From Steroidobacterales bacterium (GTDB lineage Bacteria > Pseudomonadota > Gammaproteobacteria > Steroidobacterales > Steroidobacteraceae), in the NCBI GenBank assembly GCA_044440135.1, contig JBIODC010000004.1, forward strand, positions 11,835 through 75,834: DNA of 64,000 nucleotides, read 5' to 3'. Position numbers and translations under genes: made by a program. Positions 6,442-27,059 of the stretch are shown in pieces (the first letter of the stretch is position 1; each line of letters starts with the position of its first letter). The notes below the pieces were generated by a model, which had not been told where the DNA came from, made no database searches, and saw only the letters and a program-made list of their open reading frames with translations.

Positions 6442-6903
6442 TCAGGCGCTCAGCGATCGGGCCGCTTCATGGATCGCGGCACGAATGCGCACGTAGGTGG
6501 CGCAGCGGCACACGTTGCCACTCATAGCCGCGTCGATATCGGCATCGGTGGGCCGTCGATGGCTACGCAGCAGTGCGACTGCCGACATCATCTGGCCGGA
6601 CTGGCAGTAGCCGCATTGCACGACGTCAAGCTTGCGCCACGCGTTCTGCACCGCCTTGCCGACCGGCTCGCTGGCCACCGCTTCGATCGTCGTAACGTGC
6701 TTGCCTTGCACCGCGGCCAGCGGCGTGACACACGATCGGATCGCACGGCCGTCCAGCTGCACGGTACAGGCACCACAGAGCGACATGCCGCAGCCGTACT
6801 TGGTGCCGGTCATGCCGAGCTCGTCGCGCAGTGCCCACAGCAGCGGCATGTCCGCCGGCGCATCCACCGATACCTCGCGGCCATTGACCTTGAACGTGCT
6901 CAT
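6442..6903 (-). CDS. (2Fe-2S)-binding small subunit of the molybdoenzyme (IorA-like)
   Basis: Real start is ATG 6903 ([11 protein letters not shown]...), 153 aa. Cluster motifs [11 protein letters not shown] and QCGYCQSG...CRCATY are present. The 362-aa track ORF 6442..7530 is an upstream over-extension. Confidence 0.9.
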
Positions 6904-6981
6904 CGTCGCCCTCCATGATCGGATCGAAGACAAACCCCGGGGATGGCGCCAATTATAGCCGCTGCGCGCTAGAATCAATGA

Positions 6982-7635
6982 ATGCCGGATGCATTGCCGC
7001 CGCTCGAGGGCTGGAATAATTTCTACGTCATTGTCGGATCGTCCGCGGCCGGGCTCACGGGTCTCACGTTCGTCGTGATTGCACTGGCGTCGGACGCGAA
7101 TATGGTGCGACTGTCGGGCCTGCGCACCTTTATCACGCCGATCGTGATGCATTTTGGTTCGGCACTGTGGATCGCCGCACTGCTGTGCATTCCCGGACAC
7201 ACGGTCGCGAGCCTGGCGACCTGCATGAGCGTCACCGGAGTCATCCTGGCCGCCCATGGCGGCATCACGACCTGGCGCATGTACCGCAATCGGAGCGTCT
7301 ACCGGCCGATGCTCGAGGACTGGATCTGGAACGCACTGCTGCCCTCGCTGTGCTATCTGGCGCTGCTGACGGGGGGCGTGCTGCTGGTCAGCCATCCGCT
7401 GCCCGCGCTCTACACCATCGGCGCCGTGGCGCTGACGTTGCTGTTCATCGGCATCCACAACGCCTGGGACCTGGCGGTGTGGATTACGGTCGAACGTCCC
7501 GAGGCGCGATCCCAGGCGGAAGCCGGGCACAGCGCATCCGGCACCCCGGCCGGCTCAAGCAGTTCGAGCACCTCGAGCGTCAGGTCCGGGGGCGCAGCCG
7601 GCGGGGCTGCCGCGCCCCCGGATGCTGGCGCCTGA
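6982..7635 (+). CDS. Hypothetical integral membrane protein
   Basis: 217 aa with about 5 hydrophobic helices (e.g. [23 protein letters not shown]) and a Ser/Gly/Ala-rich C-terminal tail. No family recognised. Confidence 0.55.
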
Positions 7636-7704
7636 CGCAAGCGCTGCGGGGGCTCGTCGGGCCGGCTTGCGCGAGACCTGGCGCCACTAGCCTCGCCAAC
7701 CGGA

Positions 7705-8493
7705 TCACGACCGAAACTGTGGTGCGGGCGTGCTCCATTCCGAATCTGTCAGCACGATATCCATCGTTATCTTTGCGCGGCAGAGCCACAACAGACGCCA
7801 GGCCGTCAATACTCGTCCGTTATGATCATAGATATGCTTGTAGAAGGCGGTACAGCGAATGATTTTCCGCGTTCCCGCAACGCGGGCAATCACCCTGCCG
7901 ATCCAGCCCAAAGGGCGAAGTTTGAGATAACACGGGTGCAGCGAAAGATGCAGCGTCGGGCGATTCAACTTCAGGTAATCCACCATGGTCGGCAGGATCG
8001 CGTATTCCCCGCCCTCTATGTCCATCTTGATGAAGTTGCATTCGGTGATGTTGCTCTCACGGATGAAATCATCGAACGACAATCCCTTGACGGTCCAATG
8101 GGTCTTCTTCTTGCCGAACAGCAGGCTTGAGGTTGAATCGCCGCCCTGTCCGCGGCTGCCGAAAGCCACCTCGCCCGATTTCGGCGCAATGCATATGTTG
8201 AGCACCCGAATGTTGTCGGTCGTGGGCCTGTTCAGGTCGATGTTCTGCTCGAGCTCGGCAAAGGCCAGCGGATCGGGTTCCACAGCATAAGCGGATTTCG
8301 CGAGCTGGCATCCGTACAACAGCGTGGGACCGATCCAGGCGCCGATGTCGATATAGGAGTGCTGGCGATCGAGGAACCGGTCAAAAATCGCGAAGGTGTC
8401 CGATTCCCAGGTGCCTTTCGCAACCTCTCGCCAGAAAGCGCCATTCTTCCCTGGCGAGACTTTGAATTCCTTGTTCTGCAGGCTGATGAGCAT
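7705..8493 (-). CDS. FkbM family methyltransferase
   Basis: FIKMDIEGGEYAILP motif. ATG at 8493 (the track start 8499 is GTG). About 52% G+C from hand counts over 7801-8100, versus about 70% in the flanks. Confidence 0.85.
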   Translation of the reverse strand: MLISLQNKEFKVSPGKNGAFWREVAKGTWESDTFAIFDRFLDRQHSYIDIGAWIGPTLLYGCQLAKSAYAVEPDPLAFAELEQNIDLNRPTTDNIRVLNICIAPKSGEVAFGSRGQGGDSTSSLLFGKKKTHWTVKGLSFDDFIRESNITECNFIKMDIEGGEYAILPTMVDYLKLNRPTLHLSLHPCYLKLRPLGWIGRVIARVAGTRKIIRCTAFYKHIYDHNGRVLTAWRLLWLCRAKITMDIVLTDSEWSTPAPQFRS

Positions 8494-8498
8494 CCGCA

Positions 8499-9848
8499 CT
8501 AGGCAGCGCCGTGCCTGGCCTCGAGATCGTAGGTGCCGGCCGCGGTGATCTCGAGCGTGGCGAAGTCCCCGACCTTCAATCGCGCGGCGCCGCGAATGCG
8601 CACCACGCCGTCGATCTCCGGCGCATCGCCGGCGCTGCGCGCGATCGCGACACCGTCCTCGATCGCATCGACCAGCACGCGACAGCGCCGACCGACGCGC
8701 GCCGCGAGGCGCGCGGCGCTTATCTGCCCGGCCTTGTGCATGAAGCGCTCATAGCGCTCCTGCTTGACCTGCTCGGGTACCGGATCGGCGATCGCATTGG
8801 CCGCGGCGCCCTCGACCGGCGAATACTTGAAACAGCCGACACGGTCGAGTCCGGCGGCATCGAGCCAGGCCAGCAGCTGCTCGAACTCGGCCTCGGACTC
8901 GCCCGGAAAGCCGACGATGAAGGTGCTGCGCAACGTCAGATCGGGCCGCTGTGCGCGCCAGGATTCGATCCGGCGCAGCGTATTCTCGGCGTGCGCCGGC
9001 CGGCGCATGCGCTTGAGTACCGCGGGGCTGGCATGCTGGAACGGAATGTCGAGATAGGGCAATACGCCCTGTTCACTCATCAGCGGGATCACGGCGTCGA
9101 CGTGCGGGTACGGATAGACGTAGTGCAGGCGCGCCCAGACTCCGAGCGCGCCCAGCGCGCGCACCAGGTCGAGGAATCGGGTCTGATACGGCTCGCCGCG
9201 CCACTGCACGCCGCGATAGCGGATGTCGCTGCCATAGGCGCTGGTGTCCTGCGAGATGACCAGCAGTTCCTTGACGCCAGCGCTCACCAGCGCTTCGGCC
9301 TCACGCATGACCGCATCGAGCGGCCGGCTCACCAGCGCGCCGCGCAGCGATGGAATGATGCAGAAGCTGCAGCGGTTGTTGCAGCCCTCGGAGATCTTCA
9401 GGTAGGCGTAGTGGCGGGGCGTGAGGCGGATGCCCTGCGGCGGCACCAGGTCGATGAACGGATCATGCGGCTGCGGCAGATGCTCGTTGACTGCCTCGAT
9501 CACGCGCTCGTAGGCGTGCGGGCCAGTGACGCCAAGCACCTTCGGGTGACGCTCGAGGATGCGCTGCGGATTGGCGCCGAGGCAGCCGGTCACGAGCACA
9601 CGGCCGTTCTGGCGCAGCGCTTCTCCGATCGCCTGCAGCGACTCATCGATGGCCGCGTCGATGAAACCGCAGGTATTGACCACCACCAGATCGGCATCGG
9701 CATAGCCGGCGGCAATGGTGTAACCGCGGGTCTTGAGCTCGGTGATCAGACGCTCGGAGTCCACCAGGGCCTTGGGACAGCCGAGGCTGACAAAGCCGAC
9801 CGCGGGCGCGCGGCCGCGCACCGTGGATTTTCGTAGCGCAGTGCTCAT
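8499..9848 (-). CDS. rimO: Ribosomal protein S12 methylthiotransferase RimO
   Basis: [24 protein letters not shown]-terminus, radical-SAM CNNRCSFC and C-terminal TRAM-like region. ATG 9848 (MSTALRK...). Confidence 0.93.
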
Positions 9849-10537: not shown

Positions 10538-10995
10538 GCGCGCTCGCGTCGGGCCGGCGCGAGCTGATCGCGTTCGCCGGTGCCGTCCAGTGCGAATCCG
10601 CCGCCGGCGCCGTTGACCTGGTGCTGCGCGGCTATGCCCGCGGCATGGAGCCCGCGCGCAGCGGATTGACCGAAGTGCTGTTCAGCGGCGCCGGCACCGT
10701 GGCGCTGCCGCCGGTGCTGCGCGACGCCCGGGTGATCGAGCTCGCCGCCGCACCCGCGACCGGCAGCGCCCACGACATCGCACGCAGGCGCTATCGCATC
10801 GAGAGTCCCGGGCTGCAGCTCGAATTGCCGGCGCGCAGCGTGCAGCTGCACCGCGATGCGGCAGCGGCGTTCTTCGGTGCGGTGCCGCCGGTGCGGGTGC
10901 CGCTGCGGCTGCGCGTCGGCTGGTCGCTGCTGCTGACGGTGCTGCGTATTCCGAAGGCCGAGCTGCTGCTCAGGAAAATTCGAGGCTCGACATGA
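10534..10995 (+). CDS. Hypothetical protein (about 153 aa)
   Basis: TTG 10534 overlaps the upstream TGA (TTGA), and its own TGA overlaps the downstream ATG (ATGA). GC3 is very high in this frame. C-terminal hydrophobic segment GWSLLLTVL. Start is uncertain (alternative ATG at codon 38). No family recognised. Confidence 0.5.
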
Positions 10996-12461
10996 CGGCG
11001 CGCATTCCGGTCACGGTGCTCACGGGATTTCTCGGCGCCGGCAAGACCACCCTGGTCAATCGCATCCTGTCCGAGAATCATGGTAAGCGCATCGCCGTGA
11101 TCGAAAATGAATTCGGCGAGGTAGGCGTGGACCACGAACTGGTGATCGGCGCCGACGAGGAGATCTTCGAGACCAGCAATGGCTGCATCTGCTGTACGGT
11201 GCGCGGCGACCTGATCCGCATCCTGAGCCAGCTGCGCAAGCGGCGTGACCGCTTCGATTCAATCCTGATCGAAACCACGGGCCTGGCCGATCCGGGCCCG
11301 GTCGCGCAGACGTTCTTCATCGACGAGGAACTCAAGGAGCACTTCTCGCTCGACGCCATCGTGACGCTGGTCGATGCGCGCCACATCGAGCACTCGCTCG
11401 AGAGCAGTCCGATCGCGCTCGAGCAGATCGCGTTTGCCGACGTCATCCTGCTCAACAAGATCGATCTGGTCGACCCGGCCGCGCTCGAGCGCATCGAGCG
11501 CCGGGTACGCAGCATCACCGCCACCGCCGCGGTGATACACAGCCACAAGGCCGACGTGCCGCTCGAGCGTGTGCTGAGCCTCGGCACGTTCGATCTGGAG
11601 CGCGCGCTCGGGCTCGACAGCGCGTTCCTTGAACCGGCACGCCCGTTCGAATGGGCCGGGTTGTATCGGCTGTCGCCGGGCCGGCATGTGCTGCATACCG
11701 GCGCCCACGACCACGACCACGAACACGAACACGACCACGACCACGAACACGAACACGACCACGACCACGAGGACGGGCATGGGCACCCGCCCGCACACGG
11801 CGATGGTCACGGCGGGAACGACGATCAGGATCACGCGCATGCGCAGCACCCAGGCCACGCGCTGTCGCAGGTCGATCTGGTGATGCTGCCGGCCGTCGAC
11901 GCGTCGACCGGCTCGATCGATGCACTGCTCGAGGCCGCGACCGCGCTGTTCGAGAGCGAACCGGTGGCGGCCGCGTCCGGCGCCGTGCTCGGCCCGCAGC
12001 GGCGGTACCGGCTGCAGCTCGCGCGGGATGCGCAGTTCCAGCTCCAGATCGCGCAAGCCGGATGCTGGGCGGTCTTCACCGAGCACGCGCCGGTCGAATT
12101 CGGCCTGCATCTGCACGGCGCCGCGCCGCAGACGCAGCGCGAGTTCGGTTCGCATCATCACGACCTCGCAGTGGGCTCCATCGGACTGACCGATGCGCGC
12201 GCACTCGATGCCGCCAAGGTCAACGACTGGCTTTCGTACCTGTTGCAGAGCCGTGGTGCGGACATCCTGCGCATGAAGGGCGTGCTCAATCTCAAGGGCG
12301 AGAGCCGGCGCTACGTGTTCCACGGCGTGCACATGATGTTCGATGGCCAGCTCGAGCGCCCCTGGAGCGATGCGGCTGCGCGCCGCAGCCGGCTGGTCTT
12401 CATCGGCCGCAGTCTCGATCGCCATGAGCTCGAGGCCGGCTTCGAATCCTGCGTCGCATGA
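10992..12461 (+). CDS. COG0523 / CobW-family G3E GTPase (putative metallochaperone) with a long His-rich insertion
   Basis: Walker [17 protein letters not shown] (CxCC) and a CobW_C-like end ([10 protein letters not shown]...[10 protein letters not shown]). The His/Asp/Glu tract [37 protein letters not shown] sits in an insertion of about 170 aa. Confidence 0.88.
11706..11771 (+). repeat. 24-nt tandem repeat (about 2.7 copies) inside the COG0523 gene, encoding HDHDHEHE units
   Basis: CACGACCACGACCACGAACACGAA occurs at 11706-11729 and identically at 11730-11753. A partial third copy runs 11754-11770/1. Confidence 0.9.
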
Positions 12462-13477
12462 GCGCCGCGCCCGGCCGCCTGCGGCCCCAGGAGCGCATCG
12501 AGCTCGGCGACTACCCGGTCGACGCCGCCTGGTCGAGTGACGGCCGCAGCCTCGCGATTGCCGGCGGCGAAGGGGCGGTCCTGCTGCTGCCGGTTGCCGT
12601 TCGCGGTGCAGCGCGGGTCATCGGCCGCCACGACGGCGGCGTGCTGGCCGTGGCGTGGCAGAGCGCGGGCGGTTTATTTGCCACGTCGGGGCAGGACGGC
12701 AACGTGCTGCTGTGGGACGCTCGCTCGCTCGAGGCAAAACCGATCCACCGCGGCAACGAATGGAGCGAGCAGCTCGCGTTCGCCGACAACGGCCGGCTGC
12801 TCGCGGTGGCCACCGGGCGCGCGCTGCATCTGTTCGATCAGTACGGTGAGGCGCGGCATCATTTTGCCGGCCACGCCGGTGCAATCGTGGCGCTGGCGTG
12901 GCGGCCCAAGCGGCGGGAGATTGCCGCGGCGGGCAACGGTGGCATGCGGCTGCATCGACTCGAACCGCATCCGGAGTCGCGCGACTACCCGTGGCGCGGC
13001 GCCTGCCTGACCGCGAGCTGGAACGCCGACGGCCGCATGCTCGCCTGTGGCATGCAGGATGGCAGCGCGCACCTGTGGTATGTCGCGAGCGACACCGAGG
13101 CCGAGCTGCCCGGGCTGGGGGCCAAGGTGTTCGCGACCGGATGGAGCGCCAACGGACGATTTCTCGCGGCCGCGGCCGGCGCTGCCCTGGTGGTGTGGGA
13201 TTTTGGCGCCAAGGGCGCGGATGCGTTGCGGCCGACCGAGCTGCAGGCGCATTCGGAGCGCATCACGGCGCTGGCTTTCCGGCCCAGCGGCAGCTGGCTG
13301 GTGTCTGCGGCGCGCGACCGACGGCTGCTGCTGTGGCGCGTCGGCGCCACGAACCAGCCGCAGGATGCGCATCTGCTGGCCGACGACTGCACGCTGCTGC
13401 GATTCTCGCGCGACGGCACCCGTCTGGCGGTGGGCGATGCGCGCGGCGGCATGACCATCTACGACTGCGCACCGTAG
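12458..13477 (+). CDS. WD40 repeat protein
   Basis: ATGA overlap with the COG0523 gene. Repeated blades include [53 protein letters not shown] and [26 protein letters not shown]. Confidence 0.88.
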
Positions 13478-13498: not shown

Positions 13499-14644
13499 TC
13501 ACGGGCCCTGCGGATCCAGCTCCATCGCGGGACGCACGCCGCCGGCCGTGCGCGACCAGCCGAAGACGCTGGCGTAGCTGGCCAGCTGCATCTGCAGCAC
13601 CTGTGACCAGGTGAAGCGCTGCAGCACGCGCACGCGCGCGCTCGCGCCCAGCGCATCCAGGTCGCGCTCGTAGAGTTGCCGGATCGCCCGCGCCATGCTC
13701 GCCGCGCTCTCTGGCTCGGCCAGTTCGCCGACCCGTTGGTCCACCAGCTCGGGCACCGCGCCGGCGCGCACGCCGACCACCGGCCGGCCGCACGCCATTG
13801 CCTCGACGATCACCAGTCCGAAGGTCTCGCTGCTGCCCGCGTGCACCAGCGCGTCGGCGGAGGCCAGCCATTGGGCCAGCTCGATGCTGTCGCGCCGATA
13901 CGGGATCATGGTCACATGCTGGCTCGGGCGTGCGCTGCGCCCGCCGCCGATCAGCAGCAGGTGATAGGGCCTGCCCAGCAGCGCCATCGCCTCGCGCAGC
14001 ACATGCAGGTTCTTTTCCTCGGAGAATCGGCCGGCAAACACCAGCAGGCGCGCATCGTCGGGCAGCTCGAGCAGCCGGCGCAGATCGAGCGTGCGCCGCG
14101 CCGGCGAGAATACCTCGGTGTCCACGCCCAGCGGCTGATAAACGCTGCGCGCCACGCCGAGCCGGGCGAGGTACGCGCACATCAGGCGGCTCGGGGCCAG
14201 CACCAGATCGAACTTCGCGTACACGTGGTGCAGGTAGCGCGTGATGGCGCGTTCGACGCCCGCGCCGAAGCGGCGAGCAAGCACCTGCGCCAAATGCGAA
14301 TGGAAGAACGCGACCAGCGGAATGTTGCGCGCGCGCGCCACCTGCGCCGCGCACCAGGCCGGATGAAACACGTCGCCGGCTTCGATCAGGTCGGGCTCGA
14401 GCGCAAACAGCATGCGGGTCCAGGTGCGGGTCGACAGCGGCAACCGGTAATTGAAAGTGAACGGCAGCGGCATGCCGGCGATGGTGCTGATGTCGCCGGG
14501 ACGCAGCCGCGTGCAATTGCCGGGCACCAGTATCGAATGACGGTGGGCGCTGCGCGAGCCGAGCCAGGCATGCTTGGCGGTCAGATAGCGCTTGACGCCA
14601 CCGCTGGTGGGCGAGAAAAACACTGTGGTGTCGACGAGCTGCAT
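13499..14644 (-). CDS. Glycosyltransferase family 4 (GT-B)
   Basis: ATG 14644 (MQLVDTTVFFSPTSGGVKRYL). C-terminal SETFGLVIVEAMACGRPVV motif. Lies 50 nt downstream of the CheA-like ATPase gene on the same strand. Confidence 0.85.
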   Translation of the reverse strand: MQLVDTTVFFSPTSGGVKRYLTAKHAWLGSRSAHRHSILVPGNCTRLRPGDISTIAGMPLPFTFNYRLPLSTRTWTRMLFALEPDLIEAGDVFHPAWCAAQVARARNIPLVAFFHSHLAQVLARRFGAGVERAITRYLHHVYAKFDLVLAPSRLMCAYLARLGVARSVYQPLGVDTEVFSPARRTLDLRRLLELPDDARLLVFAGRFSEEKNLHVLREAMALLGRPYHLLLIGGGRSARPSQHVTMIPYRRDSIELAQWLASADALVHAGSSETFGLVIVEAMACGRPVVGVRAGAVPELVDQRVGELAEPESAASMARAIRQLYERDLDALGASARVRVLQRFTWSQVLQMQLASYASVFGWSRTAGGVRPAMELDPQGP

Positions 14645-14694
14645 GACGGTTCCCGCACCGGGAAGCTGCATTGCAGCGGCATGTCAATTTGGTG

Positions 14695-15750
14695 TCAAGC
14701 GGGCAGCCTGGCGGAAAGCTCGGCGTCTGACAGCGGCGGAAAGGAAATCCGATAGCGCGTGAACTGCCCGCGCTTGGCCGCGACCTGCAGCCGTCCGCCC
14801 AGGCGCTGCACGTGATCGCGCACGATCTGCAGCCCGAGGCCGCGCCGCGCGGTATTTTTCGCGGTGGTGACGCCGGGTTGGAAGATCACGCTGGCCAGGC
14901 GCGGCGGATCGAGTGCCTTGGCCGCCTCCGCGGTCAGTAGGCCGAGTCTGACCGCGACTTCAGCGATCCGTTCGGCGTCGAGTCCCGCGCCATCATCCTG
15001 CATGTTCAGATCGAAACCCTGCGCGCCGCGGTCGATGAACTCGACCACCAGCGTGCCGATCTCCGGCTTGGAGCGTTCGGCGCGCTGCGCCGGCGGCTCG
15101 ATGCCGTGTTCGATCGAGTTGCGCAGCAACTGGCCGAGCAGATCGAACAGGGTGCTGATCCAGGGCTCGGGGATGTCCTCCAGGCCCATCGTGACCAGCG
15201 CCACGCGCTTGCTCTGCTCGCCGGCGAATTTGTCGCTCAACTGCTGCAGCGCTGCGACGAACTTCGGCGGCGCGCGCTGCTGGGTGGCGTCGAGCTCGTC
15301 CGCGCCGTCCTCGTCCCCGGGCGGCAGATGCACCGCGGCGCAGTCGGCTGCGATCAGAACATGGCTGCACAGCTCCTCGAGCGTCACCATCGCCGGCAGC
15401 AGGTCGTTGCCGCTGATGTCCGCCCGCAGCTCGATCGCGTGCAGCGCGGCCTGCGCGCTGGCGACCCGCGAACTGAAGCTGGGAAGGTGCAGGCCGAGCA
15501 TCGCTTCGCTGAGGGAGGACAGTTCGTTCTGCAGGCGTTCGATCTTGCCGCGAAACGCGCCCTGGTCGCGCGTCGTCATGCGCAGCGCCGCGCGGATGCG
15601 CTCGACCGTTTCGAGCGCGTGCGTCATGCACGCCGCCAGCGGCGCGAGTTCCGCCAGCAGCAGCGATCGGTACAGGTCGCGCTGATCGCGCAGCGTTTCG
15701 ATTTCGACCAGCAGCGCCTGCGGCATCTTCTGGATGGTGGAGTCGCTCAT
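14695..15750 (-). CDS. CheA-type HATPase_c domain protein with no recognisable HPt, H-box or CheW-like domain
   Basis: N-box LLRNSIEHGIE, G1 MQDDGAGLD, G2 RRGLGLQIVRDHV. The N-terminal 190 aa or so is helical and unassigned. ATGA overlap with the upstream kinase gene. Confidence 0.75.
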   Translation of the reverse strand: MSDSTIQKMPQALLVEIETLRDQRDLYRSLLLAELAPLAACMTHALETVERIRAALRMTTRDQGAFRGKIERLQNELSSLSEAMLGLHLPSFSSRVASAQAALHAIELRADISGNDLLPAMVTLEELCSHVLIAADCAAVHLPPGDEDGADELDATQQRAPPKFVAALQQLSDKFAGEQSKRVALVTMGLEDIPEPWISTLFDLLGQLLRNSIEHGIEPPAQRAERSKPEIGTLVVEFIDRGAQGFDLNMQDDGAGLDAERIAEVAVRLGLLTAEAAKALDPPRLASVIFQPGVTTAKNTARRGLGLQIVRDHVQRLGGRLQVAAKRGQFTRYRISFPPLSDAELSARLPA

Positions 15751-17054
15751 GACTCGCTGGCCTCGGCGCCGACCGGCGCGCCATGCGCGGCGCGCTCGTC
15801 GATGGCAGCCATGATCGCCGCGTAGGCCGCCACGGCGTCCGGGAAGCGCCGGTTGCGGTCGCGCGCCATCAGCCCCTCGAGCAGGGGCTCGAGCGCGGCC
15901 AGCTCGCCCGCCAGCGGCGGACGCGGCCCCTGCACGTGCTGCTGCATGACTTCCACGGCGCTGTTGCCGACGTAGGGCTTGGTCCCGGTCAGCATCTCGT
16001 ACAGCATGACGCCGACGCTGTAAAGGTCGCTGCGCGCATCGAGCGCAATGCCCTGCGCCTGCTCCGGACTCATGTAGTAAGGCGAGCCGCGCAGCACGCC
16101 GAGCGCGGTGCTGCGGCCGGTGGATTCGAGGCCTTTGGCAATCCCGAAATCGATCAGCACCACCGAGCCGTCTTCGCGCAGCATCACGTTCGGCGGCTTC
16201 AAATCGCGATGAATCAGGCCTGCGGCGTGGATCACGCGCAGCGCCCCGCAGATGCGCAGCGCGTAGCCCAGGCTCTCGCTCACGCTCATGGGCTGCTGCA
16301 GGCGCGTCTTCAGATCGCCGCAGGGAAAGTATTCCATTGCGATGAATTCGCGTCCCGCATGAAACCCGTAATCGTAGATCTCCACCACCGAGCGATGCTG
16401 CACCGCACTGATGGCGGCGTACTCGCGCGCGAACTCGCGCGATTCCTCCGCCCCCTCGGCGCTCGGCTTGCTGATCTTGAGCGCGACATTGCGCCCCAGG
16501 GTGATGCTGTAGGCGAAGTACACCGCGGCGCGCGAGGACTCGCCGAGCTTGTGCAGGATGGCGTACTGCGGCAGGTCCAGCAGTGACGGATCGATACGGC
16601 GCAACAGCGCCTTGGCCGGCCCCGGACGCGCCGGCGCGGCACGCCGTCGCGTGCGCAGCGCCAGGCGCAACGCGGTCGCGAGCCGCTGCGCGTTGAGCAG
16701 AGTCCGCGGCAGGTAGTCGGTCGCCCCCAGCCGCAGCGCCCGCACCGCACTCAGCTCGTTGCCGCCCGAGGCGATGACGACGATCGGGGGCGTGTCATCG
16801 CGGCGCTGGAACAGGCGCAGCGTTTCCAGGCCGGTGGCCGGATCCTCGGGCGCATCACCGCACTGCGCGCCGAGCACGATCAGGTCGAACGACTTCGTGG
16901 TCAGGTCCGCTGCGCGCGCCGGCAGCTCAGTCGGCTGCATTTCCCCGACCGTGGCGTCGGGCCACAGGATCTCGATGTGATGACGCAGCCAGGTGCGCAG
17001 GTCGCGCTCGGCACCGACGATCAGCAGGCGCGCGTTTGTGGCTGGAGCGTTCAT
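15747..17054 (-). CDS. Ser/Thr protein kinase with N-terminal degenerate (pseudo-)receiver domain
   Basis: CheY-like segment RLLIVGAERD...FDLIVLGAQ...PIVVIASGG...DYLPR. Hanks kinase motifs VALKISK, HRDLKPPNVML, DFGIAKG and SPYYMSPEQ. Confidence 0.85.
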   Translation of the reverse strand: MNAPATNARLLIVGAERDLRTWLRHHIEILWPDATVGEMQPTELPARAADLTTKSFDLIVLGAQCGDAPEDPATGLETLRLFQRRDDTPPIVVIASGGNELSAVRALRLGATDYLPRTLLNAQRLATALRLALRTRRRAAPARPGPAKALLRRIDPSLLDLPQYAILHKLGESSRAAVYFAYSITLGRNVALKISKPSAEGAEESREFAREYAAISAVQHRSVVEIYDYGFHAGREFIAMEYFPCGDLKTRLQQPMSVSESLGYALRICGALRVIHAAGLIHRDLKPPNVMLREDGSVVLIDFGIAKGLESTGRSTALGVLRGSPYYMSPEQAQGIALDARSDLYSVGVMLYEMLTGTKPYVGNSAVEVMQQHVQGPRPPLAGELAALEPLLEGLMARDRNRRFPDAVAAYAAIMAAIDERAAHGAPVGAEASES

Positions 17055-18889
17055 GGCTTGAACCGCACGCGCACGCGCGCGCGCTGGGCGACGGCGACCC
17101 CGTCGCGCTCGACCGGATGGTAGCGGCTCTGCGACAGCGCTGCGATGGCCGAGTGTTCGAACACGCCGCGCGGCTCGGCCGAGACCACCTGGACGTTGGC
17201 GACATTGCCCGCGGGCGTGACGGTGAATTCAAGCTCGACCGAGCCGCTCACGGCCTGCGCCAGTGCATCCGGCGGATAAACCGGTGTCACGAAGTGCGCT
17301 CGCTGCAGCCGGGCTTCGGGGATGACCGCAGGCAGAGCCGCATCCTGCGCCCGCTGCAGCGCAGCCGCAGCGCTCGCGAGCTCGTCGCCGCCGAGACCCG
17401 CGGCCGATGCCGCCTGCAGCCGCTGGTCCGCGCCGGCGAGGTCGTTGCGTGCCAGCCGCGCCTGCACGTCCGCGGCGAGCGCGCTGCGCAGCGAGTGCAG
17501 CATGGCCGGCAGCGCCGCATTGTCGGGATCGGCTGCCTTGAGATCGCGGTACTGGGCGAGCGCACCGTCATCCGCGGGCTCCAGCAGCTGTCCGTCGGCG
17601 AGGCGCTGCTCGAAGGCGCGCTGCCAGGCCAGCAGCTGCTCGGCGTGCGCGCTGCGGGCGCGTTGCAGGCTGGCGAGCTGCGTGCTCAGTTGCTCCAACG
17701 TGCCCTCGTTCACATGGTAGTCGCGACAGGCGGCGAGCCAGCGCGCGGCGGAGTCCACGTCGCCGGCGGCGAGGGCGGCGCGCAGCTTCGCGATCAGCGC
17801 ATCGCCGAGCGCGACCGACACCGCACGCACGTCGGCATCGTCCGGGGCCAGCGCGATCGCCGCCTGCAGGTAACTGCGGGCGCTGTCGTCGGCGGGCTCG
17901 AGCAGTGCGCCGCTCGCGAGGCGCTTCTGCGCCAGCTGCACATAGACATGCGCCTGATCGGTCCGTGCAACGATCGCGGTGCGTTTGACCTGATCGGCCA
18001 GCACGGCTGCGCGGGCTTCGCTGTCGCTGATCAGACGGTCACGCTCGGCCCGCTCGGCCGCTGCGCGATCGATCGCGTCGCGTTCGGCCTCGGCATCCTG
18101 CGCCGTCTGTGCGGCGCGCGCTGCCTGGGTTGCCGCGGCGTCCGGAGCCGTGGAATTCGAGGTCGCGGGCGCACCCGGCTGCAGCGCACTCGGCGCCGGG
18201 CCGGGCGGCGAGCGATACCACAGCGCGGCGCCCACCGCGGCGGCGACCAGGGCGAGGAGAATCGAGGCCATCAGCCACAGCGGGCGGCGGCCGCGGCCGG
18301 AGTGTCCGAACGGGCTCTGGCCGACCGGGTTCACCGCGGCAGGGCCATTCGGCAGCGGCACGCCCAGGGCCTGATCGAGCAGCGTCTGCCGGCGCAGCAG
18401 TGCCGCATCCACGAACAGCTTCAGGCGCTGGGCCGACGCGGGCTTATGGGCGAATCGGAACAGCGTACCGTCCGCCAGCTGCGCGGCGAACTGATTCTGC
18501 AGCGCGGCCGGTGCGGCCAGCAGCAGCAGCAGCTGCGGGAACTGCTGATGTACCGTGGCGATGAAGCCTTCGAGCGGCGTCGGGGCGGCGGCGGCATCGA
18601 TCAGCGCCACCGCCGCTGCGTTCGCGACCAGCTGGTCCGCAAAGCGGTCGGCAGAGGGTGAGGTGACGACGGCGGCCTGATTGATAGCGGCGAGCGTCAG
18701 CGCCTCGAGCAGCAGCGGATCCTCCGACAGTGCAACGATCGACAGCGACGCGCGGCTGCCCGACGGCGGCGGCGATGCCTCGGGACTGCCGCGAGCCGGG
18801 GTCGGGGCGACGCCCGCGGGGGGTGCGCGCTCGCTCGCGACGGCAGGCTCCGCAGCGGCGGGGTCCGGGGGGGCAGCTCGCGGTTTCAT
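17051..18889 (-). CDS. TonB C-terminal domain protein with N-terminal receiver-like domain, one TM helix and repeated helical motifs
   Basis: ATG 18889 preceded by GGAG. (beta-alpha)5-like segment SIVALSED...VALIDAAA...LLLLLAAP...FAHKP. TM helix LWLMASILLALVAAAVGAALW. LLEPADD[SG]A repeats. TonB_C end VYPPDALAQAVSGSVELEFTV...RVRVRFKP. The 51 upstream track codons were rejected. Confidence 0.75.
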   Translation of the reverse strand: MKPRAAPPDPAAAEPAVASERAPPAGVAPTPARGSPEASPPPSGSRASLSIVALSEDPLLLEALTLAAINQAAVVTSPSADRFADQLVANAAAVALIDAAAAPTPLEGFIATVHQQFPQLLLLLAAPAALQNQFAAQLADGTLFRFAHKPASAQRLKLFVDAALLRRQTLLDQALGVPLPNGPAAVNPVGQSPFGHSGRGRRPLWLMASILLALVAAAVGAALWYRSPPGPAPSALQPGAPATSNSTAPDAAATQAARAAQTAQDAEAERDAIDRAAAERAERDRLISDSEARAAVLADQVKRTAIVARTDQAHVYVQLAQKRLASGALLEPADDSARSYLQAAIALAPDDADVRAVSVALGDALIAKLRAALAAGDVDSAARWLAACRDYHVNEGTLEQLSTQLASLQRARSAHAEQLLAWQRAFEQRLADGQLLEPADDGALAQYRDLKAADPDNAALPAMLHSLRSALAADVQARLARNDLAGADQRLQAASAAGLGGDELASAAAALQRAQDAALPAVIPEARLQRAHFVTPVYPPDALAQAVSGSVELEFTVTPAGNVANVQVVSAEPRGVFEHSAIAALSQSRYHPVERDGVAVAQRARVRVRFKP

Positions 18890-19059
18890 CCGACTCCGTG
18901 ATTTCAACAGTTTGGGGCAGGATATCGCGTGATCCCATGGACTGTATGCTGTCTGTCGATGCGGACAATGCTGGCCGTCGGCGGCAGCAGGGAAACTGTG
19001 ACGCGCTCGGTGCTGTTCCACTGATAATGTGACGCGCCTCACCTGACAGGAGAACGGCG

Positions 19060-20569: not shown

Positions 20570-23035
20570 CTAGTACTTCATGCCGAGCGTTGCATACCAC
20601 TCGCGTGGCGGATTGTAGGTGCCGAAAATGACGCCACCTGCGATCTGCGGCTGTCCGGTCGTGATGTAGCGCTTGTCGGTCAGATTGGCACCCCCGAGCG
20701 TGAACGTAATCCTGCCACTCGGTGAAACGATGCTGGTCGAAGCATTGATCATATCGACGTCTGGTCGGCCCAGCAGCGGCGTGTTCTGAACATCGTTGAA
20801 CATGTGGCTGGTGTGCGAGTAGTCGGCGGCAAGCCGCAGCGTCGCGCCGTTGGCGATGGTGGTGTGTGCGTCCGGACTGATCGAGACCTTCAGACGCGGC
20901 GTCTTCGGCAGATCGCTGCCGGTAAACGGGGCCGCTGCCGGGTTGATGGTGCGGTAGTAGGCGTCCATATAACCCAGGTTGCCGGACAGTGAGAAGTACT
21001 GGCCGAGGCGCGACTGCGCCTGTAGCTCGAGCCCCTTTATCGTGGCGTTACCGGCGTTCTGGGTCACGGGTGAGGTACTGATCTGGTAAGTCAACTGGAT
21101 GCCGTTATACAGGCTGTAAAACGCCGCGGCGTTGACGATCAGTTGCCGCTCGAGCCATTCGGACTTGAATCCGACCTCATAGGTTTGATCAGTTTCCGGC
21201 CCGAACGACTGGGCCGGGGATCCAGGCGGCAGCGGCGCAGTGAGTCGCGTGGTCCAGCCGCCGGTCTTGAAGCCCTTGGCATAGGTGGCGTACGCCATCA
21301 GGCTTGGGTCGAAGTGATACTGAATACCGGCGGTGGGCGTGAACTCGGTGAAGTTCTGATGATTCTCGCCCAGTGGGTAGACCTGATAAGGATTGGCGGC
21401 GCTCGGGAATCCAAAGCCAGCGCCGGCCAGGGTCTGTTGGCAGGCCGGGCTCGGAGTGGCGGGATAGCCTGCATAGCAGCCGCCGATCAATCGGTAAAAG
21501 AACCCATTCAGGTCCTGCTGTCCTCCGGTAAACGTCTTGCGGTCGCTTGACTCACGGCCGCCCAGAGTCAGCCCCACCTTGTCCGTCAGCTTGTAATCCA
21601 GGTGCAGATACCCGGCGTAGGATGTGGTGTCCAGGGTGTTGGGACCGTCAACCTGCAGTAACCCGCCGCCGAAAGTCACGAAGTCGTGGATATACCCACC
21701 TTCGTTGAAATAATAGAGGCCCGCGACGAGTTTCAACCTCGAATCGAACAGGTCCCCGAGCAGTTGCACTTCTTCGGAGATCTGATGCTGGCCTTCGGCG
21801 AAACTCAATTCGAAGAAATTGATCGGCGAGCCGTCGGCATCGAGACCGGGGGTCCAATGCAGTCGCCGCCAGCCGGTGATGGAGCGCAGCGTGAAGGACG
21901 GGTTCAGAGTCCACTCCGCGGTCAGCGCGCCACCGTAGGAATCGAGTTTGTCGAAATTCTGCCCGGTGGCGTAGGTGGTATCGATGTTTCCGGTGTTGGT
22001 CACCGCGGGGCCATACAGCAGGCGCGTGGTGGCCGGGTTCAGATTCGCCTGCCACAGCGGCGTCCCTACGGTATTGCGCGGCCCGCACACCTGCGCCGCC
22101 GTCGGCGCGAATGGAATGCCGAGCAGGCAGGCGTTGTAGATGGCGCCGAAGATGGCGCTGGGACCCGATGTAACCGTCTGCAACACGGTACTTGCCGTGG
22201 ACGGCTGGTTGGTATGCGTCCAGTCGAGCGACAAAGTCGCGGTCAGCGAGTCGGTGGCTTTCCATAGAAACTTGGCGCGCGCGACCTGCTGATTCTCACC
22301 GCCTTGGGTGTCGAAGGTCTCGGTGCCAGAACTGTGCATCGCACCCACCGGATCGGAGACGTAGGGAGTCAGCGACGGATATGGGATGCGACGCTGATAG
22401 CCGTCCCGGAATTCGGACGAGAAGGTGAACGTCGTCAGCAGATTGCTGGCCAGCGGAATGTCGGCCATGAGCGCGACGTCACGCCGATTGTAGCTGCCGC
22501 CGCTCACCTGGGCCTGACCGGCCAGCTGATCGCCCGGCGTACGGGTGACGATGCTGATGGCACCACCGATGGTATTGCGGCCAAACAACGTGCCCTGCGG
22601 GCCATTGAGGATCTCGATGCGCTCGACATCGAGCAGGTTCTGGTTGGCGCCGACGGTGCGCGCAAAGTAGACGCCGTCGACATAGACGCCGACGCCGGGA
22701 TCGAGATTGAAGGCGAAGTCGTCCTGGCCGATACCGCGAATCGAGGCCGACAGCACTGAGTTTGAGCCTGAGAACGGCGACCCTGCGTCAAGATTGACGT
22801 TGGGCGTCAACGTGGACAGGCTGTGGATATCGGTGACCCCCTTGGCGCGCAGGTCGGATTCCGAGAACGCCGTGATCGCGATCGGTACGTCCTGGATGTT
22901 CTCGCTGCGCTTCTCGGCAGTAACGACGACCTCCTCGAGCGTTCCGGCGTCCACTCCTGCCGTGGTCTGCGGGAACGCAGCCAGCGGTAGCAGAGTGCCT
23001 GCCGCACCGAACACCCACAATGCTCTGATATTCAT
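20570..23035 (-). CDS. TonB-dependent receptor
   Basis: ATG 23035 gives signal peptide MNIRALWVFGAAGTLLPLAAFPQ. Plug region EEVVVTAEKRSENIQDVPIAITAF. 821-aa barrel. The 64 upstream track codons were rejected. Confidence 0.9.
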   Translation of the reverse strand: MNIRALWVFGAAGTLLPLAAFPQTTAGVDAGTLEEVVVTAEKRSENIQDVPIAITAFSESDLRAKGVTDIHSLSTLTPNVNLDAGSPFSGSNSVLSASIRGIGQDDFAFNLDPGVGVYVDGVYFARTVGANQNLLDVERIEILNGPQGTLFGRNTIGGAISIVTRTPGDQLAGQAQVSGGSYNRRDVALMADIPLASNLLTTFTFSSEFRDGYQRRIPYPSLTPYVSDPVGAMHSSGTETFDTQGGENQQVARAKFLWKATDSLTATLSLDWTHTNQPSTASTVLQTVTSGPSAIFGAIYNACLLGIPFAPTAAQVCGPRNTVGTPLWQANLNPATTRLLYGPAVTNTGNIDTTYATGQNFDKLDSYGGALTAEWTLNPSFTLRSITGWRRLHWTPGLDADGSPINFFELSFAEGQHQISEEVQLLGDLFDSRLKLVAGLYYFNEGGYIHDFVTFGGGLLQVDGPNTLDTTSYAGYLHLDYKLTDKVGLTLGGRESSDRKTFTGGQQDLNGFFYRLIGGCYAGYPATPSPACQQTLAGAGFGFPSAANPYQVYPLGENHQNFTEFTPTAGIQYHFDPSLMAYATYAKGFKTGGWTTRLTAPLPPGSPAQSFGPETDQTYEVGFKSEWLERQLIVNAAAFYSLYNGIQLTYQISTSPVTQNAGNATIKGLELQAQSRLGQYFSLSGNLGYMDAYYRTINPAAAPFTGSDLPKTPRLKVSISPDAHTTIANGATLRLAADYSHTSHMFNDVQNTPLLGRPDVDMINASTSIVSPSGRITFTLGGANLTDKRYITTGQPQIAGGVIFGTYNPPREWYATLGMKY

Positions 23036-23269
23036 GCATCGCCCCCTGGTGTCTGAATTCGATATTTCGTTGTTGTGCGCGTCGGTAGTTCTCGTCGATA
23101 TCAGCGGCTGTCTGAACCGAACCGTGTTCCGCTCCCGTGATCGCCAGCGTCGAGTGGTGAAGGGAAGCGTTGGCGCCAATTGCACCGCGCGCCATGGAGG
23201 GTAGCCGCGCGGGTGTTGCGGGTACATGGACGAAATTCGCAGGAACTTGGATTTTTATTCCGACTGTCC

Positions 23270-25081: not shown

Positions 25082-26347
25082 GTGCGATCCCAGGCACCCA
25101 TCCTGATCGTCGGCGCCGGCCAGGCCGGCGTTCAGATTGCTGAATCGCTGCGCCAGGAAGGCTTCGGCGAGCAGCTGCTGCTGATCGGCGATGAGTCGCA
25201 TCCGCCCTACCAGCGGCCACCGCTGTCCAAGAAGTGGCTGATCGAGCCCGGTGCGATGACGGCGCTGTGGCTGCGAGGCGCCGAGTCGCTGGTGCGCCGC
25301 AGGATCGAGCTCAAGCTCGATACGCACGTGGCGGCGATCGATCGCGCCGCATCCCAGCTGCTGCTCGCGAACGGCGAGCGGCTTGGCTACGGCAAGCTCG
25401 CGCTTGCGACCGGATCGCGGGCGCGCACACTGCCGGTGCCGGGGGCATCGCTCGGCGGGGTGCTGAGCCTGCGCTCGATCGCCGACTCGGCCGCGATCGC
25501 GGCGGCGATTCGCCGCTGTGCGGCCGAGGCGCGCCCGGTGGTGGTCATCGGCGGCGGCTTCATCGGACTGGAAGTGGCCGCGGCCGCGAGCAAGCTCGGC
25601 GCCTCGGTCACGGTGCTCGAAGGACTGCCGCGACTGATGTCGCGGGTCACCGCGCCGATCGTCTCGGAGGCCTTCGAGCGCGTGCATCGTGCGCATGGCG
25701 TCGAGCTGGTGTTCGGTGCGCAGGTGACCGAGCTGGTCGGAAGCGACGGCCGGGTCGAGGCGGTGCGCAGCGCCGATGGCCGCGAATACGCGGCCGGCTG
25801 TGTCGTGGTCGGCATCGGCGTGGAACCGGATGATCGGCTCGCCGCCGCGGCCGGCCTGGCCTGCGAGCGCGGCATCGTCGTCGATGATTGCTCGCGCACC
25901 AGCGATGCCGCAATCGCCGCGGCCGGGGACTGTACTGCGCGCCGACTGGCCGACGGACGGATGCTGCGGCTCGAGTCGGTGCAGGGCGCCGTGGAGCAGG
26001 CAAAATCCGCGGCGGCGGCTCTGATGGGGCGCGAGCGGCCGTTTCGCGCCGCGCCCTGGTTCTGGTCCGACCAGTTCGACATCAAGCTGCAGATGGTCGG
26101 CCTGAGCCACGGCTACGATCAGGTCGTGACGCGCGGGGATCTGATAAAACCGGCGTTCTCGGCGTTTTATTTCCGCGCCGGCCGACTGATCGCGGTCGAT
26201 TCGCTGAACCGTATCCAGGATCACATGCAGGCCAAGCGGCTGCTGGACCACGACCTGTCGCCGACGCCGGAGCAGGTCGCCGATCCGCTGTTCGAGCTGC
26301 AGAGCCTGCTCAAGCAAGCCAAGCTCGCTACTGCGGGCGAAGCATGA
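25082..26347 (+). CDS. FAD-dependent ferredoxin-NAD(P)+ reductase (putidaredoxin-reductase-like)
   Basis: GTG start. Dinucleotide motifs IVGAGQAGVQ and VIGGGFIGLEVA. 421 aa. Lies 20 nt after the ferredoxin gene. Confidence 0.88.
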   Translation: MRSQAPILIVGAGQAGVQIAESLRQEGFGEQLLLIGDESHPPYQRPPLSKKWLIEPGAMTALWLRGAESLVRRRIELKLDTHVAAIDRAASQLLLANGERLGYGKLALATGSRARTLPVPGASLGGVLSLRSIADSAAIAAAIRRCAAEARPVVVIGGGFIGLEVAAAASKLGASVTVLEGLPRLMSRVTAPIVSEAFERVHRAHGVELVFGAQVTELVGSDGRVEAVRSADGREYAAGCVVVGIGVEPDDRLAAAAGLACERGIVVDDCSRTSDAAIAAAGDCTARRLADGRMLRLESVQGAVEQAKSAAAALMGRERPFRAAPWFWSDQFDIKLQMVGLSHGYDQVVTRGDLIKPAFSAFYFRAGRLIAVDSLNRIQDHMQAKRLLDHDLSPTPEQVADPLFELQSLLKQAKLATAGEA

Positions 26348-27059
26348 ACTCCTGGCCGCGGTAGTCGAGCGCCACCCCTTCGCGAGTGATTGCCAGGACA
26401 CGCGGCCCTTCCGGCAATGCGTCACCCTCGTGAACCCGGTGCATGTTGATCAGTGCGTAACGATCGCGCGCGCGCGCGCCGAAGACATGCAGATCGAGCC
26501 GCAGCTCCGGCAGGTCGCCACCGACGTCGCTGAAGCTCGGAAGATTGGCGTAGCGGCCGGCGCTGCCGCGTTCGGGCCGGGCGCCGGCGCCGCCCGGCAG
26601 CACCGCCGGTTCATCGTCGGCGGGATTGCGCGCACCGTCCGATGCCTCAATGCCCGCCTCGGGCGGCGGGACAGCCCTGGCCGCCGGGTCGATGCTGCCG
26701 GCGACCGGCGCCGACGCATCGGTGCCCGCCAGCGCGGCGGGCCGGTTGGCCACCGGCGCCACGGCGGCCGGCAACGCGCTCGCGCTCGGCGCGGCCGTTG
26801 CGGCCGGCAGCGATGCCGCGACGGCAGCGGGCGCCGTGGCCGGGGCGGGCGGCAACGCACGCTCGATCTGCGGGCTCGCGGGCCGATGCAGCACGAATGC
26901 AAGCAGCAGCAGGTTGACCGCGAGCAACGCGACCACGGCGATCACCCAGGCGGGGTAGCGGCGCCGCGGCTGGGTGACGCGCACCTCGAGCAGCGTCGGC
27001 CCGCTCTGCCGCTGCCGTTCGGCTTCGGATTTCTTCAGCGCGTCGAGAATCAGGGACAT
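26328..27059 (-). CDS. GspB/ExeB-like general secretion pathway protein
   Basis: MSLILDALKKSEAERQ N-terminus, one TM helix (YPAWVIAVVALLAVNLLLLAFVL) and an Ala/Pro-rich linker. TGATG overlap with the ExeA-like gene. Confidence 0.7.
   Translation of the reverse strand: MSLILDALKKSEAERQRQSGPTLLEVRVTQPRRRYPAWVIAVVALLAVNLLLLAFVLHRPASPQIERALPPAPATAPAAVAASLPAATAAPSASALPAAVAPVANRPAALAGTDASAPVAGSIDPAARAVPPPEAGIEASDGARNPADDEPAVLPGGAGARPERGSAGRYANLPSFSDVGGDLPELRLDLHVFGARARDRYALINMHRVHEGDALPEGPRVLAITREGVALDYRGQEFMLRPQ

Follow-up and report, generated by a model that had tools for sequence, protein, structure and literature searches.

A 64,000-nucleotide stretch of the genome of a soil gammaproteobacterium of the order Steroidobacterales (assembly GCA_044440135.1, contig JBIODC010000004.1, positions 11,835 to 75,834), referred to here as the window, carries a signalling gene cluster on its minus strand whose core is an adjacent gene pair, designated G2 and G3. 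G2 encodes a Hanks-type Ser/Thr kinase located behind a receiver-like domain. G3 encodes a soluble protein that, judged from its residues, joins a histidine phosphotransfer (HPt) domain without the phospho-accepting His to a CheA-type P4 ATPase domain. Each of the two predicted proteins combines an intact nucleotide-binding catalytic site with a dead two-component phosphorylation site. A plausible, though still tentative, reading is that G2 and G3 are a former histidine kinase/response regulator pair that lost its phosphorylation sites and may now act as an ATP-dependent regulatory complex of the Hanks kinase. All parts of the cluster are of known kinds (CheA P1, P4, receiver, Hanks kinase, TonB_C and GT4), and the fixed pair appears to be undescribed. 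No described pair of a receiver-Ser/Thr kinase and a His-less CheA-like protein was found in the open-access literature, in line with the initial annotation of this DNA, which knew of no system with such a composition.

The cluster consists of four genes in one direction (13499–18889, minus strand). In the order of reading, the open reading frame (ORF) calls give G1 (17051–18889, 612 aa), G2 (15747–17054, 435 aa) and G3 (14695–15750, 351 aa), followed 50 nt downstream of G3 by a GT4 glycosyltransferase gene (13499–14644). G1 starts with the ATG at 18889, with GGAG just 5' of it. ATGA stop/start overlaps link G1 to G2 at 17051–17054 and G2 to G3 at 15747–15750. The ORFs therefore bear out the initial annotation in its three co-directional, overlapping genes and in the position of the GT4 gene. 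G2 and G3 are translationally coupled and are made together. A scan of the coding strand gave no convincing terminator-like sites between the genes, the results not being above shuffle expectation. The divergent intergenic region between G1 and a GNAT acetyltransferase gene (18890–19059) is the probable promoter region of the operon; the operon promoter itself was not located, because the scan found no match to the sigma-70 consensus.

The G+C content of the window ranges from 62 to 72%, and the closest homologues of the cluster are annotated as Steroidobacteraceae or Gammaproteobacteria metagenome-assembled genomes (MAGs). For the analysis of conservation, 89 loci were examined, all from MAGs, and the genome scan relied on one peptide pattern, RN[AS][IV]EHGIE. 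The counts of G2, G1 and GT4 presence beside G3 are given after de-duplication.

The C-terminal domain of G3 (aa 162–340; 14731–15267, minus strand) is of the CheA P4 ATP-binding type, with an N box QLLRNSIEHGIE, a G1 box DDGAGL and a G2 box RRGLGLQ. Residues 169–338 align to residues 337–506 of E. coli CheA (E ~1e-22), and Foldseek matches G3 to the P4 domain of T. maritima CheA with a target TM-score of 0.85–0.92 and a root-mean-square deviation of 1.5–2.2 Å. Asn211, Asp252, Gly254 and Gly256 are invariant in 67/67 family sequences, and Gly304 is found in 66/67. In the AlphaFold2 (AF2) model (mean pLDDT 89.5), the P4 domain is preceded by five helices at aa 11–141 and a disordered linker at aa 148–158.

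The five-helix bundle (aa 11–141; 15328–15720, minus strand) is assigned as a pseudo-HPt domain from homology through intermediates together with the AF2 model. Pfam Hpt (PF01627) has no match in G3 at E ≤ 1, and a profile of the His-less G3 family alone finds no HPt in the PDB, so the homology is shown via His-containing intermediates. Exhaustive phmmer searches with G3 retrieved many longer proteins, of the sensor-Hpt-HATPase type, that align with it over the full length. In those scanned (P0269, P0280, P0289, P0308 and P0249), the Pfam Hpt domain falls exactly on the part aligned to the G3 N-terminal domain. The profile of the His-containing N-terminal domains matches CheA P1 in the PDB (1tqg, E = 3e-11; 1i5n, E = 8.5e-9), and hhalign aligns the His-less G3 family to the His-containing relatives at 99.6% probability (E = 2.7e-24), with an alignment shown gap-free. 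Foldseek matches to the whole G3 model were dominated by P4, and the fold of the N-terminal domain was not separable in them.

At the positions that define the HPt site, G3 has Ser78 for the His (codon 15517–15519), Ser81 for the Lys and Glu82 for the Gly. The His column in 67 sequences holds Thr (17), Ser (10), Glu (9), Ala (8), Asp (8), Asn (3), Arg (3), Leu (2), Gly (2), His (2) and others; thus 65/67 are non-His, and one of the two His sequences is the distant outlier L079. The family alignment shows no invariant His in the N-terminal domain. Pfam finds no P3 domain (H-kinase_dim) in G3 at E ≤ 1, there being only the linker between HPt and P4. No P5/CheW-like domain was detected, and the protein ends 11 residues past P4. 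CheW and methyl-accepting chemotaxis protein genes are absent from the neighbouring genes scanned. The predicted G3 product is a soluble, His-less P1-P4 protein and is neither a lone ATPase nor a CheA. The initial annotation had described it as an ATPase only. Its P4 assignment and the absence of P3 and CheW-like domains hold, but the absence of an HPt does not, since aa 11–141 correspond to an HPt domain with Ser78 at the active position.

Deep-branching G3 homologues are longer, with 468 aa in L073 (7542–8948) and 478 aa in L090/P0265 (6001–7437). They have an extra N-terminal domain of ~120 aa, which in P0265 gives a weak, sub-threshold match to PAS_4. This domain was lost in the clade of the window, leaving G3 without a recognisable sensor domain.

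G2 has no hydrophobic helix, and its sequence describes a soluble Hanks kinase with complete catalytic motifs behind a pseudo-receiver. The kinase domain (aa 164–424; 15783–16565, minus strand) matches Pkinase with 144.6 bits and has Lys193, Glu211, HRD at 282–284, Asn289, DFG at 302–304 and SPE at 329–331. Lys193, Glu211, DFG and SPE are invariant in 60/60 homologues. HRD and Asn289 are found in 57–59/60; two Cys in place of the Arg and a single gap in the alignment account for the deviations. The glycine-rich loop (16515–16541, aa 172–180 region) reads G-x-S-x-R-A instead of G-x-G-x-x-G. This variant is unusual yet conserved, with Gly171 and Ser173 invariant and Arg175 present in 57/60.

The pseudo-receiver of G2 (aa 8–135; 16650–17033, minus strand) was delimited by phmmer and residue alignments. 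It matches the CpxR receiver 4uhj with E = 3.5e-8 and 84 PDB receivers in all at E ≤ 1. Aligned with CpxR and KdpE, G2 has Gly14-Ala15 where the acidic pair would stand, Gly62 for the acceptor Asp, Ser96 for the Thr and Arg117 for the Lys, and it thus falls outside the canonical response regulators in its Asp/Asp/Lys set. Together with the Pkinase match, these alignments agree with the initial annotation, which had read a GA pocket, a Gly at the Asp position and a complete Hanks kinase by eye. Aligning the N-terminal domains of G1 and G2 to Response_reg (PF00072), as proposed there, gives 26.7 bits for G2, under the gathering score of 30.2 and non-canonical in its residues, and no match for G1, where the fold was shown by other means. 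Among 60 homologues, the acceptor column of G2 holds Gly (25), Cys (16), Val (7), Ser (6), Glu (2), Ala (2), Asn (1) and Asp (1), and the Lys column holds Arg in 53/60. Within the pseudo-receiver, conservation is highest in alpha1 (WLRHH) and alpha4-beta5 (GNEL..A.R.GA..YLPR), with Trp22 more than 95% conserved and at least one of His25 and His26 present in every sequence inspected. Alpha1 and alpha4-beta5 are the faces that receivers use for partner contacts.

The linkage of the two genes is strict. In 58/58 loci with enough upstream DNA, the G3 homologue is immediately preceded by a G2 homologue, over a range of G3 identity from 93% to 30%, and the 4-nt overlap is mostly kept. Other members of the cluster are less constant: the receiver part of G1 is present in 32/53 loci, the TonB_C part of G1 in 20/53, and GT4 directly downstream of G3 homologues in 37/59. 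TonB_C and GT4 occur together, with GT4 also present in 17/18 TonB_C-bearing loci. The complete four-gene order is found again in L073 and L090, the most distant of the loci; the simplest reading is therefore an ancestral four-gene order from which G1 and GT4 have dropped out repeatedly. The invariant core is thus G2 and G3, and G1 and GT4 are frequent yet dispensable. G1 is an accessory module, being absent in ~40% of the loci, and its TonB_C in ~60%. The initial annotation had taken G1, G2 and G3 as the unit. A real unit that mixes two-component and Hanks parts is confirmed, but its core is the pair of G2 and G3 rather than the triad.

Two loci have unusual gene structures. In L051 (MAG MFD02134.bin.3.167), G2 and G3 are contained in one ORF of 790 aa (6663–9035), which encodes pseudo-receiver, kinase, HPt-like domain and P4 with a linker of its own and without a stop or start codon at the junction. 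In L063, an ORF of 95 aa upstream of the kinase (6050–6337) joins a G1-type receiver start (…ALIDAAA…) to a TonB_C end (…RVRF), and its sequence suggests a remnant of G1 left by a deletion.

Some relatives retain one or the other phosphorylation site. His is kept at the HPt position in the deep members L090/P0265 and L063, and the deep-branching G2 homologue of L071 keeps the acidic pair DD, the Lys and an Asp that lines up with the CpxR acceptor. No locus with both the HPt His and the receiver Asp was found among the loci examined. Since the His is kept in some members and the Asp in others, the family fits a stepwise degeneration of a kinase/regulator pair. The closest His-containing relative that can be placed in a gene context is P0275; it has the canonical Hpt His and adjoins a single-domain CheY-like receiver and then CheX, a classical arrangement. 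BLASTP among three domains, the receiver of G1, the pseudo-receiver of G2 and the CheY-like protein beside P0275, gave no informative similarity, and by this method descent of the G2 receiver from a P0275-type partner could not be shown. His-less Hpt domains are rare, at 0.9% in a survey (PMC12632262). Here two rarities, a pseudo-receiver and a His-less Hpt, occur together in a strictly linked, translationally coupled pair, and the Hanks and CheA P4 nucleotide-binding sites are both intact across deep divergence. Because this rare pair keeps both catalytic sites, the fate of a two-component pair after the loss of phosphotransfer is directly testable, with natural intermediates available in the His-keeping relatives, the Asp-keeping relatives and the one fused locus.

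G1 encodes a protein with a predicted receiver domain, a transmembrane (TM) helix, helical repeats and a TonB_C domain. This domain order, which had been given in the initial annotation, is borne out. Homologues in Steroidobacteraceae have ~560–610 aa and start with MKPR. The receiver-fold domain (aa 48–176; 18362–18748, minus strand) is supported by AF2, Foldseek and the family profile. An AF2 model of aa 1–210 with 28 homologues shows a (beta-alpha)5 fold at aa 49–175 with pLDDT > 90. The top Foldseek matches are all receivers, with HupR (2jk1) the best (E = 1.2e-5), followed by NtrC1, TadZ, 3hv2 and 3kcn (E 1e-5 to 1e-3, target TM-score ~0.7), and the family profile also matches the receiver 3hv2 in the PDB (E = 4.4e-5). 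Neither Pfam Response_reg, at E ≤ 1, nor the NCBIfam receiver models match G1. The pocket consists of Glu56-Asp57, Asp98 and Lys149-Pro150, with Ala125 at the Thr position. Asp57, Asp98 and Lys149 correspond to SED, VALID and HKP, respectively, the motifs that had already been read as kept. In homologues down to ~40% identity, they are conserved (Asp57 in 34/34, Asp98 in 35/35, Lys149 in 33/35 and Pro150 in 35/35), and the Thr/Ser position holds Ala in 26, Thr in 4 and Ser in 1 of 35. The modelled G1 N-terminus is therefore a receiver fold with its Asp kept, and its pocket looks phosphorylatable by its residues.

The TM helix of G1 (aa ~203–224; 18218–18283, minus strand; top Kyte-Doolittle window 2.33) follows GRGRR and has the sequence LWLMASILLALVAAAVGAALWY. 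In E. coli TonB, the N-terminal TM helix couples to ExbB/ExbD through a conserved Ser/His motif. The G1 helix has no His and does not show this motif, and its sequence is poorly conserved across homologues. Pfam scans of 34 genes of the window, which are part of its gene set, gave no exbB or exbD; these partners could be encoded in another part of the genome. C-terminal to the helix lies a periplasmic Ala-rich helical region (17315–18022, minus strand) with two repeats led by LLEPADD[SG]A motifs (aa 329–337 and 435–443; repeats at ~aa 335–414 and 441–517). The two-fold repeat of ~80 aa is weak, with a self-alignment score of 70 against 42.6 ± 7.5 for shuffles (maximum 67), and the second repeat is missing from shorter homologues. 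The TonB_C domain (aa 536–611, YP motif included; 17057–17284, minus strand) is the only domain seen in G1 by Pfam or NCBIfam (PF03544, 64.8 bits; TIGR01352, 49.4 bits), and the G1 profile matches the TonB C-terminal structures 2k9k, 6fip and 1u07 with E down to 1.6e-18. From this arrangement, G1 would be an inner-membrane protein with a cytoplasmic receiver and a periplasmic TonB_C domain.

The GT4 protein matches NCBIfam NF053787 (GpgS) with 442.3 bits, below the equivalog cut-off of 480. The alignment runs end to end (protein residues 1–361, model positions 1–360 of 361), and Pfam GT4 families match as well. GpgS is the GlcNAc-phosphatidylglycerol synthase of P. aeruginosa, encoded in the operon gpgSDF (PMC12713373). 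Unlike in that operon, neither a gpgD deacetylase nor a gpgF flippase gene is adjacent, and the next gene after GT4 encodes a WD40 protein in convergent orientation. The co-transcribed GpgS-like GT4 suggests envelope or membrane-lipid remodelling as the theme of the cluster and hints at control of membrane charge. GT4 would then be the output of the module.

According to the reading of G2 and G3 as a former kinase/regulator pair, the ancestor would have been a CheA-class kinase with an HPt P1 and a P4 domain, together with a cognate regulator whose output was a Hanks Ser/Thr kinase. Neither site is kept in this lineage, which has Ser78 in place of the HPt His and Gly62 in place of the receiver Asp. 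G2 and G3 probably still bind each other in the manner of the ancestral HPt/P4-receiver complex. G3 would serve as an ATP-binding regulatory or scaffold subunit, not as a phosphodonor, and would set the activity or substrate choice of G2. G1 may be an optional third component, whose TonB_C domain and helical repeats could reach the outer membrane or the peptidoglycan layer. As its receiver, with the acid pocket intact, would face G2 and G3 in the cytoplasm, G1 may feed envelope status into the complex or be its target, and the G1 receiver might yet receive phosphate from another source. Should G1 take part, the cluster would be a new link from the outer-membrane/TonB-box layer to cytoplasmic Ser/Thr signalling.

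Several observations weigh against this reading. The former active-site face of the G3 HPt helix (aa 76–82) is not conserved in the family, which disfavours conserved docking via the HPt face. The conserved acid pocket of G1 argues that some Asp phosphorylation is still present in the system. The 58/58 linkage comes from one order-level lineage and one syntenic block shared across it, with the convergent downstream WD40 in 64 loci and CobW in 57, and it is therefore mostly one inherited arrangement; it speaks strongly for constraint over time, but not for numerous associations of independent origin. The L051 fusion is known from one MAG contig and may reflect an error of assembly.

An unlikely alternative is that both proteins are working kinases in a cascade, where the P4 domain of G3 phosphorylates Ser/Thr or the alpha1 His of G2, or G2 phosphorylates Ser78 of G3. 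Among GHKL proteins, SpoIIAB, RsbW and the PDK/BCK kinases are protein kinases that act on Ser/Thr. In its favour, the ATP-binding residues of P4 are invariant despite the loss of the His, the His column holds Ser/Thr in 27/67 and Asp/Glu in 17/67, so that two thirds of the family have a phosphorylatable or phosphomimetic residue there, and the alpha1 His of G2 at position 25 or 26 recurs in all homologues inspected. However, one third of the family has Ala, Asn, Arg, Leu or Gly at the His position, and a site at this position is therefore not required. No CheA-class P4 is known to act on Ser/Thr, which also weighs against such a cascade. Precedents are available in the Hpt-like domains without His of ChpA (PMC10542144) and in KdpD, a histidine kinase with an added Ser-kinase function (PMC11018627), but the His-less Hpt domains of ChpA were not phosphorylated in vitro (PMC10542144).

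In its fullest and rather improbable form, the G3 P4 domain would be an active phosphotransferase with a new acceptor, either Ser/Thr of its own HPt or His25/His26 of G2, in a two-kinase relay with the Hanks kinase that reads G1 and controls membrane-lipid glycosylation. If this were true, G3 would be the first kinase of the CheA class to use a non-canonical acceptor, and G2 and G3 the first two-component pair that was re-wired rather than lost.

The initial annotation had inferred a hybrid His-Asp/Ser-Thr phosphorelay. In a working His-Asp relay of this kind, G3 would phosphorylate a His in trans or a non-canonical His, the phosphate would pass to Asp98 of G1, and the Hanks kinase would act in parallel. 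Asp57, Asp98 and Lys149 of G1 are kept in 33–35/35 homologues and the ATP site of G3 is intact; His stands at the HPt position in L090/P0265 and L063, and L090 also has an Asp-bearing G1 homologue. The replacement of the phospho-His speaks against the relay: it is missing in the window and in 65/67 sequences, and no other His of the N-terminal domain is invariant. Moreover, the cluster has no further HPt or HisKA gene, ~40% of the loci with G2 and G3 have no G1, and G3 is without P3, the dimerisation domain that CheA uses for trans-phosphorylation. A His-Asp relay starting from G3 is thus unlikely, and the working scheme as a whole has a slim chance.

It is very improbable that G3 is a decaying kinase remnant, a hitch-hiker beside G2 by inherited synteny without a joint function. 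The block from GNAT to CobW is indeed syntenic across the lineage and the phosphorylation sites are gone, but 67 sequences, with identities as low as 30%, have an intact G3 ORF of full length, with invariant ATP-binding residues. The 4-nt overlaps are maintained, one ORF fusing G2 and G3 exists, and G2 and G3 were never separated despite repeated loss of G1 and GT4. A weak match of GT4 to PF20706 (GT4-conflict) favours an anti-phage defence module of a Ser/Thr kinase and an ATPase, but this reading is scarcely credible and was rejected, since G2 matches the PADLOC kinase models PD-T4-6 and mad6 over the generic kinase domain only, G1, G3 and GT4 match none, and the cluster lies in a stable syntenic chromosomal block amid housekeeping genes (MiaB-like radical-SAM, malate dehydrogenase, acyl-CoA dehydrogenase), not in a variable island.

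Compared to known systems, G3 is most similar to CheA in its P4 domain and, via the His-containing relatives, in its five-helix HPt of the P1 type. It differs from CheA in the lack of the phospho-His, P2, P3 and P5/CheW-like domains and in the absence of chemoreceptor or CheW genes nearby. Hpt, dimerisation, HATPase and CheW-like domains are present in all CheA homologues surveyed in PMC10542144. The closest full-length relatives of G3 are uncharacterised sensor-Hpt-HATPase kinases (for example P0269, P0289, P0308 with a PilJ-type sensor, and P0275), which share with it the motifs PAR...FR.K and SGNDLLP and an Hpt joined straight to P4 without P3 or P5. Unlike G3, they keep H-x-x-K-G and have TM or periplasmic sensor domains, and the partner of P0275, the one relative seen in its gene context, is a single-domain receiver of the classical kind rather than a Hanks kinase. 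ChpA of P. aeruginosa also has Hpt folds with a non-His residue at the site in a CheA-class protein, with function given as unknown (PMC10542144). In ChpA, the His-less Hpts lie beside several functional Hpts in a complete CheA, whereas the sole HPt of G3 is His-less.

The N-terminal domain of G2 resembles pseudo-receivers (PsRs), as it is a recognisable receiver without the Asp/Asp/Lys set. The activation mechanisms of PsRs are largely unknown according to a review (PMC12632262). The G2 domain differs in its setting, being joined to a Hanks kinase in one protein and strictly partnered by a His-less HPt-ATPase; this setting did not turn up in a text search of PMC12632262.

Combinations of Hanks kinases with histidine-kinase machinery are known. 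The HstK dual kinases of cyanobacteria have a conventional HisKA/HATPase transmitter with its His. They resemble the present pair in joining a Hanks kinase to histidine kinase-type ATPase machinery, and the L051 fusion has their general layout, but here the ATPase part is CheA-class, His-less and usually a separate polypeptide, and a pseudo-receiver lies ahead of the Hanks domain. HstK proteins contain Ser/Thr kinase and histidine kinase domains in one protein (Phalip et al. 2001, cited in PMC1262709). In the Esp system of Myxococcus xanthus, the hybrid histidine kinases EspA and EspC form one complex with PktA5, a partner kinase and EspB (PMC4320627), and a histidine-kinase module and Hanks kinases thus meet in one signalling complex. 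The Esp proteins are, unlike G2 and G3, active His-Asp phosphotransfer enzymes with other domain types and another gene order, and they have no TonB_C or GT4 partner.

G1 resembles TonB transducers in its C-terminal TonB_C domain with a YP motif, its N-in single pass and a Pro/Ala-rich segment after the TM helix. It differs in a cytoplasmic receiver extension of 200 aa and a His-less, unconserved TM helix, and it has long helical repeats in place of the simple Pro-rich rod of TonB.

The cluster is surrounded by housekeeping genes, encoding a MiaB-like radical-SAM enzyme, a methyltransferase, CobW and WD40 proteins, GNAT, AraC, a TonB-dependent receptor, GspA/GspB-like proteins, acyl-CoA dehydrogenase, malate dehydrogenase and MlaE/MlaD. 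No Rfam family or tRNA came up when the window was scanned. At 10992–13477 (plus strand), the gene of a CobW-family GTPase with a long His/Asp/Glu-rich insert has a 4-nt overlap with the gene of a seven-bladed WD40 protein. This CobW-WD40 pair is convergent to G2-G3(-GT4) in ~60 related loci. WD40 proteins often partner bacterial Ser/Thr kinases, and a link of the WD40 protein to G2 and G3 is therefore conceivable.

The TonB-dependent receptor gene of the window (20570–23227, minus strand) is upstream of G1, with the AraC and GNAT genes between. In L090 (1–4629), the G1 homologue is immediately preceded by a TonB-dependent receptor gene of the same orientation. The window receptor was considered as a dedicated partner of G1 and set aside, an orthologue being nearby only in the six closest loci; that such a receptor is dedicated to the G1 TonB_C domain is possible, and it is not conserved across loci. 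A few kb upstream of the cluster (26331–28840, minus strand) are genes of a GspA-like protein (AAA_22 with a peptidoglycan-binding domain) and a GspB-like protein (T2SSB); several relatives (L003, L005) keep these genes in synteny with the kinase locus.

Further along the window (35957–38764, plus strand), an MlaE-type permease with a weak N-terminal STAS_2 match of 27.5 bits (cut-off 29.2) is followed by an MlaD-domain protein; the pair is a lipid-transport-like ABC system that possibly has an unusual STAS fusion. A gene at 43991–45331 (minus strand) encodes an NTP_transf_5 "uncharacterised nucleotidyltransferase", and a gene at 57977–59551 (minus strand) encodes a B12-binding radical-SAM enzyme. 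GC3-based calling finds few genes in the region of ~38–61 kb, where the G+C content dips to 0.63, and the region may serve peptide modification or be atypical in some other way.

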